IMG/VR virus record: IMGVR_UViG_3300049194_000147
Span: 1 to 40,896 of that record
Source of the DNA: a virus
Lineage: Duplodnaviria; Caudoviricetes
Length of the DNA: 40,896 bases
Direction: 5' to 3' (one strand)
In this document: piece after piece, positions 4,357-40,753 of the stretch
Numbering within the stretch: the stretch's first letter is position 1
Layout of the letters: the number at the start of each line of letters is the position of its first letter
Translations under genes and position numbers: made by a program
The notes under the pieces: model-generated
Told to the model about the DNA's origin: nothing
What the model saw: only the letters and a program-made list of their open reading frames with translations
The model's database searches: none

Positions 4357-6567
4357 ATGTCAATCGAACTCATTAACATATCCGCAGCCGATAACTGGCC
4401 CGAGCAAAAAAAACGCATGTGGGAGCAGCTGCAAATACTCACACAACGAATACTCGAAAAACAAACCGATATTACCAGCAACTTCGGCAGCGATTACTAC
4501 CATGTACGCTACTGCTATGCACTGTTTGCACAAAACAACGAAGCCAATCAACTTTTTCACAAAGTATGTGCCCTCAGCAAAGAATACAGTTACGATAGTT
4601 GCCAGGATGATTTTACAAAAGCAGCCGATAAAACAAAATACAAAACACTCAAACGGCTGCTCACCATTTGCCAGTACCACGGCATCGATACAAAGTTTGA
4701 AGATGAAGAAGTACCAACCGAACGGGCTGCCGAATACCTGCCCGAAGATGTAGATAGTAACCTGTACGATACCTATGGTTTTTTCGAAAAAGGCAACCAA
4801 TACTTTACACTCGAAAACAGCGGAAAAGTATTTGTACCAAAGCCATTTACCAACTTCACCATGAAGGTGCTGTTTCACATGCACAACGGCCAGCAGCCAC
4901 GCCGGGTAATTGAAGTAACCAACATTAAAAACCGTAAAAAGGTGGTAGATATACCAACCGATAGGCTGGTAAGCAAAAACGAGTTTAAAAAGTTTTTGGA
5001 AGGGTTGGGCAACTACCGCTTTTTCGGTACCGATGGTAAGTTGGATATGCTAAAAGCCTACCTCTACGACCAGGAAGCAGAATGTACCGAAATTGCTGTA
5101 CTAGGCTGGCACGAACAGGGTTTTTGGGCATGGAGCAACGGCATCTTTAATGCCAAATTTCATGCACTCGATGAGCATGGTTTTGTAGAGCTGCACGATC
5201 ATCATTACTACATCCCATCCGGCAATACCAACCAGCAAAACCGCAACCGCCGTTTTAGTAACGAACTACGTTTCAGCCACCATCAGGATCATACCGTAAC
5301 CTTCGAAGATCTCAGCCGCCGCTATTGCCAGGTGTTTAAACTAAATGGCCACATCATTTTAATGTTTAGTGTAGCCTGTTTGTTTTCCGATATTGTTTTT
5401 CACTACAAACAGTTTTTCCCTTTGCTGTTTGTGTATGGCGAAGGTGGTAGTGGTAAAGGCTCGGCCATTAAAGCAGCACAGCGGCTTTTTGGTAAACCAC
5501 AAGATCCGTTAACGCTATCCGGTAAAGCCAATACCGACAAAGCAAAAATTGCCATGTTTGCCCAGTTCATAAACAGTATGCTTCTGCTCGAAGAGTACAC
5601 CAACAACCACGATACCGATCAGCTTCTTAAAAACCTGTGGGATCGTTACGGTTACAAGCGCCGCACAATGGATATGGGCTATGGTACCGAAACCGTACCC
5701 ATACAAAGCGGTGTAGCAATTACCGGTAACTTTTCACCAACAGATGATCCGTTGCTGCAGCGATTGATATACCTGGAGCACAACGAAAACAAACACAGCG
5801 AAGAAGAAAAGCTACTGTTTAATGAGTTGATGAAGTACCTCGATAAAGGCGTAACCAGCGCCACACACCAGCTGCTCAAATACAGGCCCATGGTAGAAGA
5901 AAACTATTTAGCCCGCCATGGCGAAAACAGCAAACTGCTTACACGGGAACTCAGCAGCCTCAGCATTACCAGCCGTATGATTGAAAACATTACCGTACTC
6001 ATAACCATGTACGATGTGTTGAAAGATTGCGGCATCAACTTCCCCTTTACAAGGGAGCACCTCCGCAGCTGCTTAATAGATGCAACCAAAAACCAAAACA
6101 TTAAACGGGATAGTGGAGGCGAAGTAAGCAAGTTCTTCGATGTGTTTTACCACCTCACCAGCCTCGGCATATTAAAAGAAGATATCCATTTCAGGCTCGA
6201 AGCCAACAGCCTCATTTTTAATTTAAAAACAGTGCACCCGTTTTACATGGAATTTCACCGCAAACTTACCGGGCAGGCAGGGTTAAGCTGGGCCAACCTC
6301 AAAGACAAACTGAAAGTACACCCTGCCTATGCACAGTACAGCGAAAGCGTACGCATCAACAGCGAAACCCGTACCAGTGCTTATGTATTCCATATCGATC
6401 AAACAGGGGTTGATATAGTGGGAGCCATTGAAATATACAAAAGCAGCAACGGCCTCAGCCTGCACAAACCATCAGCCCTGCAAAAAACCTTTGAGCAAAA
6501 GATGGAAGAAAACAAAGGCTGGAAACCAAACAGCAATGCCGATTTATTTGATGATTCTAAACCTTAA
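4357..6567 (+). CDS. Phage replication protein: PriCT-2-like N-terminus plus P-loop helicase/ATPase
   Basis: Walker A YGEGGSGKGS, Walker B LLLEEY, ITGN sensor; N-terminal DIT...LFHKVC...Y....C resembles PriCT-2; next to an iteron cluster. Confidence 0.7.
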   Translation: MSIELINISAADNWPEQKKRMWEQLQILTQRILEKQTDITSNFGSDYYHVRYCYALFAQNNEANQLFHKVCALSKEYSYDSCQDDFTKAADKTKYKTLKRLLTICQYHGIDTKFEDEEVPTERAAEYLPEDVDSNLYDTYGFFEKGNQYFTLENSGKVFVPKPFTNFTMKVLFHMHNGQQPRRVIEVTNIKNRKKVVDIPTDRLVSKNEFKKFLEGLGNYRFFGTDGKLDMLKAYLYDQEAECTEIAVLGWHEQGFWAWSNGIFNAKFHALDEHGFVELHDHHYYIPSGNTNQQNRNRRFSNELRFSHHQDHTVTFEDLSRRYCQVFKLNGHIILMFSVACLFSDIVFHYKQFFPLLFVYGEGGSGKGSAIKAAQRLFGKPQDPLTLSGKANTDKAKIAMFAQFINSMLLLEEYTNNHDTDQLLKNLWDRYGYKRRTMDMGYGTETVPIQSGVAITGNFSPTDDPLLQRLIYLEHNENKHSEEEKLLFNELMKYLDKGVTSATHQLLKYRPMVEENYLARHGENSKLLTRELSSLSITSRMIENITVLITMYDVLKDCGINFPFTREHLRSCLIDATKNQNIKRDSGGEVSKFFDVFYHLTSLGILKEDIHFRLEANSLIFNLKTVHPFYMEFHRKLTGQAGLSWANLKDKLKVHPAYAQYSESVRINSETRTSAYVFHIDQTGVDIVGAIEIYKSSNGLSLHKPSALQKTFEQKMEENKGWKPNSNADLFDDSKP

Positions 6568-13989: not shown

Positions 13990-14607
13990 ATGGCAGATAA
14001 TACCACACTTAATGTAGGTACAGGTGGCGATTCGATTGCTACGGATGATATTGGTGGCGTAAAGCACCAGCGTGTAAAAATTACCATTGGTGCCGATGGT
14101 GTAAACGATGGCGATGTATCGGCTGCTAATCCGTTACCGGTAATGGCCATCGATACTTCAAAAGCTCCTATTCAATTTTGGGCAAACGCAGCAGCAGCCG
14201 GTGCAACCAATACCGAAACAGCCATAACGCTTACACGTTCAGCAAGCCCCGGAGCTGCTACAACAACGGCCACTTCGTTTGTAATTACAAACGGAAAACG
14301 TTTTCGTATTACAAGCATAACGTTTGCAACCCGTGGTAATAACACAGCAACTGCACAGGTAACAACCTTTAACATTCGGGTTAATACAGCAGGCGCTGTA
14401 ACAACCACCAGCAACATTTTGTTTTCTGCCCGTTCTGCAACACCGGCAACAGCAAACGCATGGGATCGTACAGCCGTTTTTAATTTTGCAGATGCAGGCC
14501 CCGAAATTGTGGGCGATGGTACGCTGCAAATTGGTGTTACAGCACTGGCTACTTACACAACCAACGCACCCACCTGGGATGTACAAATAATCGGCTACGA
14601 GTTCTAA
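13990..14607 (+). CDS. Ala/Thr-rich virion protein
   Basis: MADNTTLN...DDIGGVKHQRVK...VSAANPLPV N-terminus, beta-rich C-terminus. Confidence 0.6.
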   Translation: MADNTTLNVGTGGDSIATDDIGGVKHQRVKITIGADGVNDGDVSAANPLPVMAIDTSKAPIQFWANAAAAGATNTETAITLTRSASPGAATTTATSFVITNGKRFRITSITFATRGNNTATAQVTTFNIRVNTAGAVTTTSNILFSARSATPATANAWDRTAVFNFADAGPEIVGDGTLQIGVTALATYTTNAPTWDVQIIGYEF

Positions 14608-24839: not shown

Positions 24840-24855
24840 AACAGTTAAACGTTAA

Positions 24856-25068
24856 ATGTTACAGGTTATGAGTAATGAAAAAGTTTATTACATCGAGCAA
24901 TGGGGTAATAAGTTTAATCCTAAGGATGTAAACCATACACTTTATTTTGATACTGCATCATTAATTGATGGCATGGTTTATACCAACTTAAAATCACAAT
25001 TGCAAACGCATGCCTATTTCAGAGTAAAACTGAAACCGCAGCCATCGCCTTCAACCCTTAACTCATAA
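24856..25068 (+). CDS. Hypothetical protein
   Basis: 70 aa; start may be 24868. Confidence 0.55.
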   Translation: MLQVMSNEKVYYIEQWGNKFNPKDVNHTLYFDTASLIDGMVYTNLKSQLQTHAYFRVKLKPQPSPSTLNS

Positions 25069-25083
25069 CCTTTAACCTTTTCT

Positions 25084-25395
25084 ATGATCAGTATTTCTTT
25101 AAAAGACAGCAACGGCAACAGCATGCAGTTAAATGATGTAGTGCTGATTCATTACACCAACCCATCGGTAAAGTACCTGGGCGTATTACAATTTTTTGAA
25201 GAAGAAGCCTGTTTCATTATCAGCGATAACGATGGAGATTACGAATACTGGCACCCCGGCATTTGGAGCAGTATTGAAAAAGTATGTGATGGTGGTTTTG
25301 CTTTTTCACTCGATCATTACTTTGGAAGAAATGAAACTACTACTGCTGCTATGATGAAAGCGGTGGAAGAGGTGAAGGCGGCGTTGTATGTATAA
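25084..25395 (+). CDS. YopX-like protein
   Basis: LKDSNGNSMQLNDVV resembles YopX LKDxNGxEIYEGDIV; its stop TAA lies in the array boundary GTATAAC. Confidence 0.5.
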   Translation: MISISLKDSNGNSMQLNDVVLIHYTNPSVKYLGVLQFFEEEACFIISDNDGDYEYWHPGIWSSIEKVCDGGFAFSLDHYFGRNETTTAAMMKAVEEVKAALYV

Positions 25396-25521
25396 CGTTC
25401 CCACGCTTGGCGAAGGTGGCGATTTACAGCACAAATGCCGATGCGGAGAACGAATGTTGAATATAGCAGTAAATATCGAGCGGAGTACTGCACCGCCACT
25501 TTTGCCAAACGTGTGTTATGC
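25390..25521. repeat. attC-like site A (132 bp)
   Basis: GTATAAC ... GTTATGC cores; arms 25402-25421 / 25494-25513 pair 17/20 plus 2 G.T. Confidence 0.75.
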
Positions 25522-25557
25522 GTTCGGGCTTTTTGGAAACGAATTAAATTTTAAAAT

Positions 25558-26088
25558 ATGAATAGTAAAATAATCAGCTTCGCAATAGAAGCACACAACA
25601 ACACAAACCATTTATACGATGGTAAACCTTATTCGGTGCATTTGTCAATGGTAGCAATGACCGCACAAAAGTATATTGATTGCATACCTGAACAAGCACA
25701 AAGCGATGTATTATCTGCTTGTTGGTTACACGATACAATTGAAGATTGCAGAATGACTTATAATGATATTAAGCAAGTAGCTGGTGAAGCGGTTGCAAAT
25801 ATTGTTTATGCCGTAACCAACGAAAAGGGTAAAAACCGAAAAGAAAGAGCAAATGATGCCTATTACGATGGTATTAGAAAAACAATGTGGGCAAAATATG
25901 TAAAGCTATGTGATAGACTTGCAAATGTTCAATACAGCTACGATAATACTTCAAGAATGTATGGTGTTTATCAAAAAGAGAATGATGCTTTTTTGCAAGC
26001 ATTGTTTCCGAATGAAAGCGAAATGCACCACTACCGAGATATTGTCAATGATTTGAAAATGTTGTTGGGTTACACGGTCGTAGCCTGA
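25558..26088 (+). CDS. HD-domain hydrolase, Mesh1/SpoT small alarmone hydrolase-like (cassette cargo)
   Basis: AH...GKPYSVHL...WLHDTIED...VKLCDRLAN motif set. Confidence 0.8.
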   Translation: MNSKIISFAIEAHNNTNHLYDGKPYSVHLSMVAMTAQKYIDCIPEQAQSDVLSACWLHDTIEDCRMTYNDIKQVAGEAVANIVYAVTNEKGKNRKERANDAYYDGIRKTMWAKYVKLCDRLANVQYSYDNTSRMYGVYQKENDAFLQALFPNESEMHHYRDIVNDLKMLLGYTVVA

Positions 26089-26089
26089 C

Positions 26090-26199
26090 GCATAACGGCC
26101 AGAAATTGCTGTTGTGCGCCCTGTACCGATGGAACATCGGAGTAAAAGGGCAAGCAACAGTTGAGGCAGACGGCGCATTATAGCAATTTACTGTTGGAC
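26090..26199. repeat. attC-like site B (110 bp)
   Basis: GCATAAC ... GTTGGAC cores; arms 26100-26120 / 26172-26193; inner CCGATG-GAA-CATCGG hairpin. Confidence 0.75.
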
Positions 26200-26349
26200 G
26201 CCGTACGGGAGTTGTGTTTAGCCTGCCGAATTTTCTGGCCGTTGGACAGCCATAAGTAAAACAAGGGAGTGTGAAGCATGAACACGGTTGGTTTACGGCT
26301 TTCACCCCGTATGAAGAAAACAAAATTTTTTAATCTTAAAATTATAATC

Positions 26350-26670
26350 ATGGAAAATTTAAACAAAGAAGGTCGCTATATCCTGATAGCATATCGTTAC
26401 GGTCATAAAGACGGACACAGTTATTTAGTTGATTTGTGTAGCGGAATTGATACTGCAACAGAACGTGCAGATGCAGAAGCTATGGATAGAGGTGGAAAAT
26501 ACTCTGTATCCGTTTTCGCTGTCCGTACATACGGAGAAATTGAAGAAGTGTATGAGGCAAAATGCCCTGAACATTATACACAAGGAACTCAATCGTTGCA
26601 TCAAGCGCATGAACAATTAAAGAAAGATATAAAAGAAGGGCTTTCTGCTTTGTCTGTATTATTGTCTTAA
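26350..26670 (+). CDS. Hypothetical protein (cassette cargo, 106 aa)
   Basis: ATG at 26350 after an AT-rich leader; bracketed by inverted repeat 26299-26323 / 26671-26696. Confidence 0.7.
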   Translation: MENLNKEGRYILIAYRYGHKDGHSYLVDLCSGIDTATERADAEAMDRGGKYSVSVFAVRTYGEIEEVYEAKCPEHYTQGTQSLHQAHEQLKKDIKEGLSALSVLLS

Positions 26671-26703
26671 TTGTTTTCTGAATTACGGGGTGAAAGTATG
26701 GCG

Positions 26704-26938
26704 GTCCAACGATCGGGGTGTTTGCGAAGTGGTGTTTTAAAAAATCAATTATTAAACAATTAAAATTTATAAAATGAGCAACGAGAACGATGACGTTAGT
26801 GAAGCTAAGGGATGCCTATTTTACGTATTGGCATTTGCAGTTTTGGTTTTTACATTAAAGTACGGTTGTAATTGATTTTTTAAATAAGCCACGAAAGCAA
26901 GCGACCAACAGCCCCATTTCGTAAACACCATGTAAGGC
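26704..26938. repeat. attC-like site C (235 bp) with a small ORF in its loop
   Basis: GTCCAAC ... GTAAGGC cores; arms 26717-26732 / 26914-26929; inner perfect 16-bp IR 26736-26751 / 26869-26884. Confidence 0.7.
26774..26875 (+). CDS. 33-aa single-TM peptide
   Basis: MSNENDDVSEAKGCLFYVLAFAVLVFTLKYGCN with AT-rich Bacteroidota-type leader. Confidence 0.5.
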   Translation: MSNENDDVSEAKGCLFYVLAFAVLVFTLKYGCN

Positions 26939-27138
26939 GAAGGTTGCCAGCGAAGCTATCACCTTAAACAATCAACACTTACACGGGGGCTGTGGGTGCA
27001 ACCACGATCGTAAGGCAAAATTTAGGGGCTGGGAACGTAGCGAAGCGAAGTGAAAGCACCGTGTGCGGAGGATTATGTGTGTTGGCAAATTTTGCCTTAC
27101 AAGTTGATTAGCGAACCTACTATAAAAATCAATCTATT

Positions 27139-28020
27139 ATGAACAGAGCACAGGAATTAAAGTACAAGTTTATGCGGGAGTTAAAGCTGCGTAATTATGC
27201 AGATAGCAGCATACGTACCTATGCCGATTGCATTATGCAGTACTTTAAGTTTATGAATGGCAAAAAGCCTGCCGATGCCGCTGCTCATATTGAATTGATT
27301 AAAGATTATCTGCTCAGCATTAAAAACCAAAACTACCACAAACAAATGCTTGCAGCCATCCGCAACTTTCACAAGTTTGTATTAAAGCAACCGCTTAGCC
27401 TGGGCGATGTGCCTTACCCACGTGCAACAGATTATTTACCCGAAATACTTAACCTGCAGGAAACAAACAAACTGCTGGCCAGCTACAGCAACATTAAGCA
27501 CCGGGCCATTATTACATTGATGTATGTGTGTGGCTTACGTATTGGCGAAGTGCCAAAAATTAAAATAAGCCATGTAGATGGTGGGCGTGGATTGATCCGT
27601 ATTGCAGGTGCCAAAGGGTTTAAAGATCGGGATGTGCCGGTACCAGCCGATACGTTGCAACTGCTGCGTACTTACTTTACCCAATACCAACCAAAAGAAT
27701 GGCTGTTTGAAGGTCAGCAAAAAGGAGAGCAGTACACCGTACGCAGCATACAGCAATTGTTTTACCAGGGCTGCCGCCGTATAGGCTTACGTAAAAAAGT
27801 AAGGCCGCACGGTTTACGCCACAGCCGGGCTACTCACTTAAAAGAGGCTGGTGTGGATATAAAAGACATTGCCGATTTTTTAGGCCATTACCGCATACAA
27901 ACCACAGAGCTGTATTTAAAACTCAGCAAAAAAACATTGGTGAACCGTATTGCTATGGCAGATGAATTATTGAAACAGATTTTTAAACAGGAAGCAAAAG
28001 AAGCACTTACTTACGCATGA
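27139..28020 (+). CDS. Tyrosine recombinase, integron-integrase-like with N-terminal SAM-like domain, no IntI insertion
   Basis: LRNYADSSIRTY N-domain; GLRIGE (R), KGFKDR (K), HGLRHS (HxxR), LGH...TTELY (H, Y); short spacer WLFEG...YTVRS. Confidence 0.9.
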   Translation: MNRAQELKYKFMRELKLRNYADSSIRTYADCIMQYFKFMNGKKPADAAAHIELIKDYLLSIKNQNYHKQMLAAIRNFHKFVLKQPLSLGDVPYPRATDYLPEILNLQETNKLLASYSNIKHRAIITLMYVCGLRIGEVPKIKISHVDGGRGLIRIAGAKGFKDRDVPVPADTLQLLRTYFTQYQPKEWLFEGQQKGEQYTVRSIQQLFYQGCRRIGLRKKVRPHGLRHSRATHLKEAGVDIKDIADFLGHYRIQTTELYLKLSKKTLVNRIAMADELLKQIFKQEAKEALTYA

Positions 28021-34739: not shown

Positions 34740-36527
34740 ATGAGTAAGCAAGCAGGATTACAGATTGAAGGTGAGTTTTTGGATCTTGTACCGGGCACCG
34801 TTATTGACCTGGAAGAGCAAAACATTTTTTTACAGCTGGAAGAAGAAGTACAAGGCGATTACACATTGCCGTTTGAGGCTGTGGTAAACGAAAAAAACCT
34901 GCGTCTTACCGATTACAATAGTGTAATTAACAGCGTTGGCATGGGTAAAAAAGATGCTGTTTTGTGGGATGGTACCATACAGCACAGCCGTGGAACTGTA
35001 AAAATTGAAAAGCTGAGAAGTAACCTCAACGATATTAAAAAAGGCAGCATCAGTTTGTATTATTTGAAAGATGTGAGCAGTTTTTACAGTGAGATAAAAG
35101 ATAAAAAGTTAACTGATCTTAGTTACGATCCGATTGTATTGCCTGCCGATGGCAGTGCAGGTTTGGTAAGTGTACGTAATGCTTTAAATCTTTCATGGGC
35201 TGTTGGTAATTGCGATACGTACGATTATGTTGTTTACCCTGTTTTGGGCGATGAAGAGGAACACCCTTTTGGTGGTACATACAGACAGGTATGGAATTAC
35301 ATGCGTTATACAGCTACCCCAACAGGCGGTTTGCCAAACTGTACATTGGAGTACAGTCCTGGCACAACATCAACCGGCGAAACTTATTTTAATTCTTACA
35401 CGCCATTCCCTTACCTGCGTAATGTTTTGTTGAAAATATTTGATGAGGCAGGATGGAAACTGCAGGGCGATATTTTAACCGATCCTGATTTTAAAAAGAT
35501 TACCATCATTTATTTTCAGCAAATCATTATTAACCGTAGAGATCAAAACCCTACTTTCCGCATTAATGAGCACCTGCCACCAATAAACATCAGTACATTT
35601 TTAATTGAACTATCTAAACGCCTGGGCATTTGGTTCGATTATAACAGCAGCTTAAAAACGGCTACCATCAAACTGCGTAAAGATGCCATCAGCAGCAGCG
35701 ACCGTGTTGATATAAGCAATATTGTTTCGCCTGTTTACCAGCGAATCGTTATTGATCAAAATATTATTTACGCATTGGATGAGTACCGGAACGAAAACGA
35801 ATCCTTTTCGCTTTCAAAATTCAATAATATGGGTTCGGTTTTAACCGAATCGGCATTGCCAACACCCACATCATCTATTGCCGATGATCTATACCTTGTA
35901 AAAAGTAAAAACGTTTATGTTGCCTGTGTAACCAACAACGGAACAACGTTTTTTTGGGAAACAGTATCGCAAAACAAAACCGGTTATTTGCCTGCAGGTT
36001 ATACCAAAAAGATTACAACCAAATGCTACATCCCATCAATGGAAATACAGGATCAAACATTTGGTGGCGTAAATACAAAATACTACATCCCGTATTGTAA
36101 AGATGAAATGCTGATAAGGCCACGTACATACCGTGAAATTGATATTGATACCAGCACCGATCATTTTTACTTGGCTTACTACCACGGCCCACAGGAAGAT
36201 ACTACCGGGCATGTGTATCCCTATGCATCGCCACATCCGTACACAATTACAGGGGTAAATGTTGGCGATGATAGTCTTACTTTTTTATTCAATGATGGTG
36301 CAGAAGAAAGAGGTTTGTATCACAGAAACTGGAAAACATTTTTGGATACATTAACCCAGCGTGAAAAATATACCTTTACCACTTATTGCGATATTGTAAC
36401 CTTTAAAAACCTCAGTTTTGGACAAATTGTAGTGGTAAACGGCGTGCAGTTTTACCTGCAAAATAAAAAGAGCCGAATACCTTACGATGGCATTGCCACC
36501 ATTGAGTGCAGCCGTATTGTATCGTAA
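34740..36527 (+). CDS. Tail tip/hub protein (putative)
   Basis: 595 aa; LDL...YTLPF N-terminus and HLPPINISTFL. Confidence 0.55.
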   Translation: MSKQAGLQIEGEFLDLVPGTVIDLEEQNIFLQLEEEVQGDYTLPFEAVVNEKNLRLTDYNSVINSVGMGKKDAVLWDGTIQHSRGTVKIEKLRSNLNDIKKGSISLYYLKDVSSFYSEIKDKKLTDLSYDPIVLPADGSAGLVSVRNALNLSWAVGNCDTYDYVVYPVLGDEEEHPFGGTYRQVWNYMRYTATPTGGLPNCTLEYSPGTTSTGETYFNSYTPFPYLRNVLLKIFDEAGWKLQGDILTDPDFKKITIIYFQQIIINRRDQNPTFRINEHLPPINISTFLIELSKRLGIWFDYNSSLKTATIKLRKDAISSSDRVDISNIVSPVYQRIVIDQNIIYALDEYRNENESFSLSKFNNMGSVLTESALPTPTSSIADDLYLVKSKNVYVACVTNNGTTFFWETVSQNKTGYLPAGYTKKITTKCYIPSMEIQDQTFGGVNTKYYIPYCKDEMLIRPRTYREIDIDTSTDHFYLAYYHGPQEDTTGHVYPYASPHPYTITGVNVGDDSLTFLFNDGAEERGLYHRNWKTFLDTLTQREKYTFTTYCDIVTFKNLSFGQIVVVNGVQFYLQNKKSRIPYDGIATIECSRIVS

Positions 36528-39757: not shown

Positions 39758-40753
39758 TTATTGATGTTGTTGCGATCGTTCGTACAAAAGGCCGGGAGTT
39801 ATGCCGTACTCTTTTTTAAAGGCCTTGGTAAAATTTGAAACATCGCTAAAGCCAATGCGTAAACCGGCTTCCTTTGGCGAAATACCTGTTGCTAAAAAGT
39901 CCTTTGCTTTTTCCAGCCTGTTTTTATTATAATATTCATACAACGCATAGCCATACACCTGTTTAAAACGTTGTTTCAGTTTAGTACCGCACATTTGTGC
40001 AATGACCGCCAGTTTATTAATAGATGGGAAACGGTCTAAATCTTCTTTTAATAATTCTTCTATGGCTTTCAGTTTTGTCAGGTCTTCTTCGGGAATAACG
40101 GCATTTGTAAGTATGGCTGTTTGTCCGTTTAAATAGGTTTTAAAGAAATAATCTAACAGCGTAACAATGTTGGTTTTAACCTGGAAGCGTTGTTTCTGGC
40201 AATTAAAATCGGCTGTAAAAATTTTCTGTAGTGTATTATTTATTTCTTCATCAATGATCATCTTATCAATTAACTGCACACCCTGGTTGGTAAGTTGATT
40301 GATATTCTTTTTTGCTTCATCGTTCAGATGAACAGAAAGCCATTGCGGCGTAAGATATATACCTAATCGTTTAATACGAGAACCAGCAGAGTAATTCACC
40401 TGCAATTCGGTATTCGTTGGCGATAAAAAAATATTATTCTTTTGAATTGTTTCTTCATTTCGAAACGAATCCTTTTTATTCTTTACATGAATAAAATTTT
40501 TAACCTGTGTTTGATTAAAGAAGATCAGTAATCCTGCTTGGTTATTACTTAGTCTGTGTAAGGTAAAATCTGTATTCAGCTCGGCATCCAGGATTCCGAA
40601 CGAGAAGGTTCGGTCGATACTGTCGGCAAAACAATAACCCCTGCCAATTGTCTCCGGAAAGAAAAGTAGGTTGTTCGTAGCTTTACTTCCTGTAAGAGAC
40701 CCAATTTCCTGTAACCAGGTTTTGAAGTTTCGTTGTTTGTATTGTAAATACAT
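39758..40753 (-). CDS. Host AraC-family transcriptional regulator
   Basis: C-terminal KLKQRFKQVYG...RLEKAK...IGFSDVSNFTKAFKKEYGITP. Confidence 0.92.
   Translation of the reverse strand: MYLQYKQRNFKTWLQEIGSLTGSKATNNLLFFPETIGRGYCFADSIDRTFSFGILDAELNTDFTLHRLSNNQAGLLIFFNQTQVKNFIHVKNKKDSFRNEETIQKNNIFLSPTNTELQVNYSAGSRIKRLGIYLTPQWLSVHLNDEAKKNINQLTNQGVQLIDKMIIDEEINNTLQKIFTADFNCQKQRFQVKTNIVTLLDYFFKTYLNGQTAILTNAVIPEEDLTKLKAIEELLKEDLDRFPSINKLAVIAQMCGTKLKQRFKQVYGYALYEYYNKNRLEKAKDFLATGISPKEAGLRIGFSDVSNFTKAFKKEYGITPGLLYERSQQHQ

Follow-up and report, generated by a model that had tools for sequence, protein, structure and literature searches.

A three-cassette array beside an insertion-less tyrosine recombinase in a phage genome resembles, and departs from, integrons

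Integrons hold tandem cassettes bounded by imperfect attC hairpins, and their recombinases work on folded single strands. In the available text of PMC7790495, the I2 insertion and single-strand recombination are both described as exclusive to the integron integrases (IntI), with direct proof of causality said to be missing, and Xer is described as acting on a folded single strand of CTXphi without I2. According to the parts of PMC5027507 that treat strand selection, the recombining attC strand is set by extrahelical bases, an unpaired center and a G.T bias, and no mobile or chromosomal integron has ever been observed with genes that face the docking site. Here, we describe a locus in the IMG/VR virus record IMGVR_UViG_3300049194_000147 (hereafter the window, which is the whole virus record of 40,896 nucleotides (nt)), in which three cassettes (25397-27100) stand at a docking site directly before a tyrosine recombinase gene. 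The array works like an integron yet falls outside that class by three tested features: I2, extrahelical bases and gene polarity. We consider it probable that this is a three-cassette array at a fixed docking site, where an insertion-less recombinase family cuts and rejoins cassettes on a folded single strand.

Sites of this kind have been met before under another name. Phage clusters of attC sites lacking integron integrases (CALINs) were treated by Qi et al. 2023 (PMC9892861), in the text available, as canonical attC without an integrase, and divergent attC directions were noted there in Polaribacter phage P12002L. One of those sites, P12002L_attC1, belongs to the class described here and heads a methyltransferase gene; it was the only one of six phage attC sites not recombined by IntI1, a failure that is only suggestive because the construct had short flanks. 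The window's sites share a G after AAC and a T before GTT with the bottom strands in Table S3 of that paper, whose main text contains none of the terms Cellulophaga, Leef, Bacteroid- or Flavobacter- and whose section 3.4 names no cognate insertion-less recombinase. In the accessible portion of PMC8776804, the Leef and Ingeline integrases are read as signs of a temperate lifestyle, and the words 'integron' and 'cassette' do not occur. We found no description of this class in a literature search that covered few subscription papers and only part of the supplementary data of PMC9892861.

The array is built of units consisting of a spacer, a hairpin and a segment, and such a unit is gained and lost at the exact point between AAC and G. 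On the + strand, cassette 1 (25397-26096, 700 nt) comprises hairpin H1 (25397-25514) and segment S1 (25515-26096), cassette 2 (26097-26710, 614 nt) comprises H2 (26097-26192) and S2 (26193-26710), and cassette 3 (26711-27100, 390 nt) comprises H3 (26711-26931) and the non-coding S3 (26932-27100). These hairpin limits refine those of an initial annotation made from the letters alone, all of whose quoted motifs are present in the sequence. The same annotation had placed an attI-like point at 27100/27101, and we indeed find there a cassette end without a hairpin followed by a conserved arm: the docking site (27090-27115, + strand) consists of the last cassette end, a crossover at about 27100, a 5-nt spacer (27101-27105) and the arm GATTAGCGAA (27106-27115), which resembles the left arm of the hairpins. 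An intact 293-residue tyrosine recombinase (27139-28020, + strand; PF13495 and PF00589) starts 38 nt past the end of the last cassette. At the other end, the stop codon of a native phage gene (25084-25395, + strand; 103 residues, no family) lies inside the distal junction GTATAAC (25390-25396), which is without the T that cassette ends carry 11 nt before the crossover. All six homologous arrays that we traced to their far end likewise stop in non-cassette sequence ending TAAC.

Integrons and this system both have tandem cassettes with imperfect hairpins and AAC/GTT core boxes (RYYYAAC/GTTRRRY), complementarity between the ends of a cassette's own sequence, a crossover at the AAC triplet, a single docking site beside the recombinase, a variable loop, and a cargo of methyltransferases and genes of unknown function; the G.T bias on the recombining strand is also common to both, as described in the part of PMC5027507 available to us. 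The system described here has no I2 and no extrahelical bases, its G.T pairs fall in both half-sites, its outer stem measures about 15 base pairs (bp) and its center is 7-8 nt on one side and 4-5 nt on the other. Its recombinase is co-oriented with the array and lies downstream of it, its phage genes face the docking site, start codons and small open reading frames (ORFs) occur in hairpin loops, and some cassettes hold an internal complement of their own junction. The 'reverse' integrons of Treponema have a canonical IntI and an attC after each gene. As far as the available descriptions of them go, they share with this locus a recombinase transcribed in the direction of the cassette genes; here, in contrast, the hairpin heads the gene and the array is upstream of the recombinase.

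A site finder run over the whole window returned exactly these three + strand sites, a test that is partly circular because its threshold was the score of the weakest of these same three sites; the cassette array proposed in the initial annotation is nonetheless real by this measure. Among 500 dinucleotide shuffles of 25301-27140, 496 gave no site, four gave one and none gave two or more. For all three hairpins the fold of the + strand is lower in energy than that of the - strand.

Along the + strand, each site opens with AAC and a spacer whose first base is G, continues through a stem, a variable loop and the return arm, and closes with a short T-ending spacer followed by GTT. Of 185 segments between sites, 110 have a start and an end that pair at no fewer than 10 of 12 positions, against 2.0% of random pairings. 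In 101 distinct cassettes (pairing at 9 or more of 12), all four pair types are used at positions 5-9, and positions 13-15, which were not selected upon, pair in 77-89%, giving an outer stem of about 15 nt. Position 11 behaves differently: it pairs in only three of the 101, with T on the end side in all 101 cassettes and a facing G in 81. This outer stem joins cassette ends that lie 67-2325 nt apart, and the site is complete only in a circle. The inner stem of 143 sites pairs in one register with no bulge, and at the equivalent position it has G.T in 115 and a Watson-Crick pair in 4%; the base next to the inner triplet is a C.A mismatch in 69. The centers of these sites are 8+4 nt in 74 and 7+4 nt in 30. 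We found no extrahelical bases of the attC L-stem type in any of the 143, the conserved G.T and frequent C.A standing in their place, and a bulged T in the inner stem was rejected because the arms pair in one register. Since there is no bulge and G.T occurs in both halves, the folded + strand presents two pseudo-symmetric half-sites. A circle of cassette 1 is predicted to fold into a complete site, with R-stem pair probabilities of 0.98-1.0 at eight of nine positions.

The recombinase retains a full set of catalytic residues (R134, K159, H224, R227, H250 and Y259), invariant in 46 aligned homologs chosen among the 120 matches listed of 308. The linker between its KGxKxR and HxLRH motifs measures 66 residues; two IntI have 106 and 107 residues there, and five Xer proteins have 69-74. 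In the 27 of 38 short-linker group members for which both motifs could be located, it is 65-68 residues long. Aligned with VchIntIA (2a3v), the match splits into two stretches, with 33 query residues spanning 75 and about 40 residues of IntI missing. Both the linker and the split alignment thus bear out the earlier claim that the enzyme lacks the IntI insertion, and its predicted structure (mean predicted local distance difference test score 88) has no extra helix between residues 183 and 201. The protein scores under the cut-offs of the IntI, XerC, XerD and XerA models (TIGR02249, 124 against 265 bits, as a partial match split in two; TIGR02224, 147 against 335; TIGR02225, 143 against 330; NF040815, 186 against 220), and by these models it is not a XerC/XerD orthologue. 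Foldseek with the predicted structure ranks XerA first and VchIntIA next, and XerA is also the best match by sequence.

In a 45-row tree, IntI (100/98) and Xer (100/99) each form a clade, and 38 short-linker proteins, the window's enzyme among them, split from both at 94/96, a split that is not starred. The recombinase therefore falls outside both families in the phylogeny that the initial annotation had proposed. Because this tree is unrooted and has only two IntI rows, we claim neither a sister relation nor an order of events; a quick tree that had placed the group beside IntI was set aside, as the careful unrooted tree shows no sister. What the enzyme shares with XerC/XerD and XerA is the short linker and the best match by sequence and fold. 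It differs from Xer and from integrative mobile elements exploiting Xer (IMEX) in its separate tree group, its own docking site and its many sequence-diverse hairpins, which would stand in place of a dif mimic, and it adjoins tandem gene cassettes where an IMEX is one element. The recombinase gene sits mid-genome and not at a prophage edge beside attP; it precedes the portal module, and its stop overlaps the gene that follows.

Population data show that the array changes. In four of eight soil sequencing runs (X2, X3, X4 and X5), we detected a deletion allele whose joint connects 25391 to 26092 with six shared letters, equivalent to the removal of exactly 25397-26096, that is, cassette 1. Depths without and with the cassette were 16.7/22.1, 12.5/16, 9.4/13.7 and 4.6/9.2, respectively, and the deletion bubble contains no other letters. 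The joint was absent from runs X1, X7, X8 and X9. Content therefore differs among phages, as set out below, and also within the phage's own population.

Recurring cassettes in related loci reveal what moves together. Cassettes 1 and 3 are both found elsewhere beside new neighbors, their ends mostly unchanged. Loci L004 and L268 share the same spacer, hairpin and segment with different neighbors on both sides. S3-type segments follow an H3-type hairpin in all seven distinct copies tabulated, and this pair occurs in phage loci L004, L251, L253 and L268 and in chromosomal loci L230 and L270-L272. These linked copies confirm the assignment of each hairpin to the segment on its right, and the reverse assignment, to the segment on its left, was rejected on the same linkage; the idea that S3 is part of the docking site was also dropped, as S3 sits mid-array elsewhere. 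The cassette of the HD-domain gene recurs at 97% identity in L063, with H1 and ending at the same AAC. It is present in L064 at 94.5% with another hairpin, in L065 with none before it, and in L066 with no sites at all, where it appears to be a cassette gene that has lost its sites and been domesticated. In L114 a different ORF follows H1 and the same leader, L251 has the hairpin, leader and 3' end of cassette 2 around a different ORF, and L024, which has the same downstream genes as the window phage, has a different terminal cassette end. Given such recurrences with swapped hairpins, the linkage between hairpin and segment is real but leaky. Several individual copies stand out: the HD cassette of L064 ends an array without a docking arm (5540-5700), that of L065 starts an array without a hairpin (about 4945-4960), and L063 holds an H1 copy with a different spacer, in which the first arm bases no longer match the right arm (about 4840-4860), which makes it a hybrid and suggests exchange inside the stem. 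In chromosomal locus L240, the same hairpin and segment start occur twice, at about -10619 and -4820 from the recombinase, with different upstream ends; this looks to be a duplicated cassette, as semi-conservative recombination would give.

These observations fit the following mechanism. The + strand would fold when it becomes single-stranded in phage replication, giving two half-sites of the form T-N7-A(A)C, in which T lies opposite G, on either side of an asymmetric center of 7-8 / 4-5 nt. The enzyme would cleave the AAC arm of the + strand and carry out one strand exchange, and the junction would be resolved by replication. Excision would then be hairpin by hairpin and insertion circle by docking site, next to the recombinase, which is the presumed order of entry. 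A second exchange may be blocked by the uneven center together with the inner base of the second half-site, which is often mismatched; these features would replace the I2 helix and bulged bases of integrons. As phage cassettes are built with their genes along phage transcription, they would need no Pc-type promoter. Host-encoded relatives of the enzyme probably also act on the sites in trans.

Sites of this class gather beside recombinases of this family. Around 33 homologous recombinases (kept from 62 plus the window after we dropped duplicates, weak partial matches and loci with less than about 380 nt upstream), the site finder called 58 sites, a few of which look spurious, in 132,964 nt upstream and three in 157,017 nt downstream, in keeping with the expectation that homologs would be associated with such hairpins. 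A docking platform, made of a cassette end, about 5 nt and the conserved arm without a hairpin, is visible in 29 of the 33 loci (21 by script and eight by eye), 37-67 nt before the recombinase match, and in most close homologs the start codon follows the crossover by 37-39 nt. Two cultured phages, Polaribacter phage Leef_1 and Cellulophaga phage Ingeline, have the same layout. The closest phage homolog (84%, L001 6925-7962) has different flanking genes and one cassette with a DNA cytosine methyltransferase-like ORF. Across stored viral sequence, we estimate some 1300 stretches for one narrow site motif.

The system extends beyond phages, which leaves the question of whose enzyme does the work. 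The cassettes might be real and be moved by a host enzyme, either a chromosomal insertion-less relative or XerC/XerD, with the phage recombinase a passenger or in another role; we regard this as unlikely, though it is the alternative that fares best. In its favor, 180 of 401 Chitinophagaceae-family genomes searched match the clade profile at E<=1e-45, and 16 of 20 Chitinophagaceae chromosomal regions carry the same site class (four before and 12 after the gene, with polarity pointing at the gene). Because this site class adjoins related recombinases there, the system is not phage-specific, and the initial annotation's phrase 'distinct phage gene-capture system' has to be given up. S3-type cassettes occur on both phages and chromosomes. 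Only three of 125 motif-found viral loci, 48 of which span at least 6 kb, hold such a recombinase in the DNA fetched, and in phage P12002L (L307, 29224-39706), for which no integrase is annotated, about five to six sites stand at the head of small genes and of methyltransferases. These facts have to be set against the docking site at a fixed distance before the phage gene, the strong upstream bias of the arrays (58 against three) and the invariant catalytic residues of the phage enzyme. Moreover, a host relative acting in trans would use the same chemistry, and therefore only the XerC/XerD version is truly an alternative. The proposal that a second recombinase shuffles cargo accordingly stands in part: the content varies, and the role of the enzyme is something we infer, given how few of the motif-found viral loci hold one.

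Gene polarity bears on what the fold is. In 184 viral and metagenome cassettes, the ORF lies on the fold strand in 163, on the opposite strand in nine, and 12 are non-coding, such that genes face the docking site; in 46 chromosomal cassettes, genes face away from it in 38 and toward it in one, with seven non-coding. The genes of the window's cassettes read toward the docking site, opposite to integrons, a point missed by the initial annotation, whose integron topology holds for the polarity of the sites and not for that of the genes. Since the fold strand is coding in the phage pool and non-coding in chromosomal cassettes, the fold most likely acts as DNA and not as RNA. A contrary account would take the hairpins as RNA leaders or terminators and have the segments swapped by double-stranded two-exchange recombination, or by short-homology recombination, at the AAC core. 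It gains from an enzyme without I2 that is closest to XerA, from G.T pairs that would also suit RNA, from the longest ORF starting inside the hairpin in 78 of the 163 phage cassettes (a rough count), from the six shared letters of the natural deletion and from hairpins that are sometimes swapped relative to segments. Yet the G.T-favored strand is non-coding in chromosomal arrays, the outer stem is complete only in a circle, and partner sites have different spacers, whereas tyrosine recombination by two exchanges requires them to match. We judge this account improbable, and more so than movement by a host enzyme. That the locus is a canonical integron whose IntI has diverged and whose cassettes are inverted can be dismissed as very improbable: the AAC...GTT boxes with the G and T seen in the available part of PMC9892861 Table S3, the PF13495 N-terminus, the partial TIGR02249 match and VchIntIA among the top folds speak for it, against a split and low-scoring model match, a short linker, a position outside the IntI clade, no extrahelical base and the failure of IntI1 on a site of this class in that paper.

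Several observations weigh against single-strand recombination by the insertion-less family, the reading that we prefer. The eight runs yielded neither a circle junction nor an empty platform, nor any joint that would mark the loss of cassette 2 or 3, and none of the 29 loci with a visible platform has an empty one (four longer-protein loci were left aside); excision circles and the predicted empty site, which also had no exact match in viral_contigs, are thus points where the initial annotation was not borne out. The deletion joint has a 24-letter short side at likeness 90, a kind of case of which the tool warns, three of the four runs with it may be the window's own source, and all four may come from a single campaign. 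The deletion allele might also stem from a second strain present alongside or from microhomology recombination, and contigs do not distinguish excision from a coexisting strain. Four pairs at 94% segment identity or more comprise one that shares the hairpin and not the spacer, one with related hairpins and two with different ones. Folds of the individual hairpins are only moderately better than shuffles (z of -2.4 for the + strand and -1.5 to -3.1 for the - strand). The short-linker group includes array-free members (that of a Leptospira phage and an ISCR-adjacent enzyme), and the rarity of recombinases among motif-found viral loci counts here as well. Many sites were found by their left-arm motif, and the consensus for that arm is biased as a result; of 43 chromosomal sites identified independently of the motif, with the T set by construction, 34 have G opposite it and three have A.

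Cassettes 2 and 3 hold a further element, an internal reverse complement of their own circle junction. In cassette 2 it lies at 26229-26247 (+ strand) and pairs with the segment end plus the H2 spacer, and a second stem joins 26299-26311 with 26684-26696; in cassette 3 it lies at 27002-27023 (+ strand) and covaries with the spacer across copies. Among 231 cassettes, screened with a caller that missed cassette 2, six have such a complement at 16-17 of 17 positions and none at 13-15, and controls reach at most 14 (downstream spacer) or 13 (random spacer) of 17. We therefore rejected it as a general feature. In the seven S3-type copies, the variable spacer positions match the copy's own internal complement at 6, 6, 6, 6, 6, 6 and 5 of 6, the 42 cross pairs all stay below 6, and the next cassette's spacer matches at 0-3. 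The same internal complement occurs in the cassette-2 frame of L251 and in L014 and L057. When circles of cassettes 2 and 3 are folded in silico, the internal copy takes up the junction, leaving the usual outer stem at a probability of 0. The element may act as a folding switch, most likely one that lowers mobility. We favor such a lock because the only cassette seen to vary, cassette 1, is the one without an internal complement, a single and weak case; the element may instead be a splint for pre-alignment or a relic of how cassettes arise.

Taken more broadly, the locus may represent a second widespread integron class with folded single-stranded sites that need neither I2 nor bulges and in which G.T wobbles are read instead, with Bacteroidota phages running a gene-inverted cassette pool on their hosts' sites and some cassettes carrying a mobility-setting splint; we see this wider proposal as evenly poised between right and wrong. 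If true, it would overturn the idea that I2 enables chemistry of the integron kind, and it would serve as a living model of the transition between Xer-like enzymes and IntI. An I2-free enzyme beside a cassette-exchanging array makes the I2 question testable by existing conjugation assays, and it could supply a recombinase orthogonal to IntI1. Integron finders would miss or mislabel this site class, which would also explain how Bacteroidota phages acquire methyltransferases and other counter-defense genes. The interpretation of the Leef_1 and Ingeline integrases as a temperate sign, as given in the available text of PMC8776804, may need revisiting.

Cassette 1 encodes a 176-residue HD-domain protein (25558-26088, + strand; HD_4, SpoT/RelA hydrolase-like; PF13328, E 7.7e-10; phrog_990) that is likely a small alarmone hydrolase; TIGR00691 matches residues 8-124, far under its cut-off. 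Cassette 2 has an ORF (26278/26350-26670) of no known family. In the H3 loop, a perfect 16-nt inverted repeat (26736-26751/26869-26884) flanks a 33-codon hydrophobic ORF (26774-26875), and the hairpin loops of L057, L067 and L068 also hold small ORFs, some of them hydrophobic; the loop itself can therefore carry cargo. PADLOC matched none of four ORFs, an Rfam scan of the region returned a single chance snoRNA match and nothing relevant, no RNA data set was listed as containing the region, promoter and terminator scans of the array were at chance level with no promoter excess, and the Bacteroidota -7 motif had no match in the array.

Beyond these phages and chromosomes, relatives occur on plasmids. 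A Rufibacter plasmid (L310, 4368-9515) encodes a 484-residue relative; short sites of 54 nt lie downstream, and the genes point away from it. On an Acinetobacter baumannii plasmid (L311, 2980-5879), a truncated relative (39% identity over part) immediately precedes tet(X5) and estT; tet(X5) itself follows a short hairpin and a start of the GTT type, and the site finder called no site there.

The window has matches to primase, head protease, tape-measure, portal and terminase proteins, and the sequencing runs that hold the region are soil metagenomes. As had been noted earlier, a large serine recombinase is present besides the tyrosine recombinase (264-1781, - strand; PF00239 and PF07508; phrog_95, E 2.8e-64; TP901-1-type matches); it lies outside the array, at the contig end, and is likely the lysogeny integrase. 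The record is a 40.9-kb virus contig, and because host flanks are not demonstrated we call the phage likely temperate in place of the earlier 'prophage-borne'. Its host is likely a member of the Chitinophagaceae, since close homologs of the recombinase occur in Ferruginibacter and Sediminibacterium assemblies. Our searches found no viral relatives of the portal gene or of the gene left of the array, and hence no syntenic phage free of the module for comparison. Immediately to the left of the array, at 24854-25080, an inverted repeat of 20 nt (90%) surrounds a 70-residue ORF (24856-25068); its ends are GTT...AAC-like and it has no hairpin, possibly making it a decayed cassette or another repeat type. 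Two isolated site-finder matches lie on the - strand (35414-35535 and 14264-14305), and the low-G+C right end of the window, with an AraC-family gene (39758-40753), may be host DNA.

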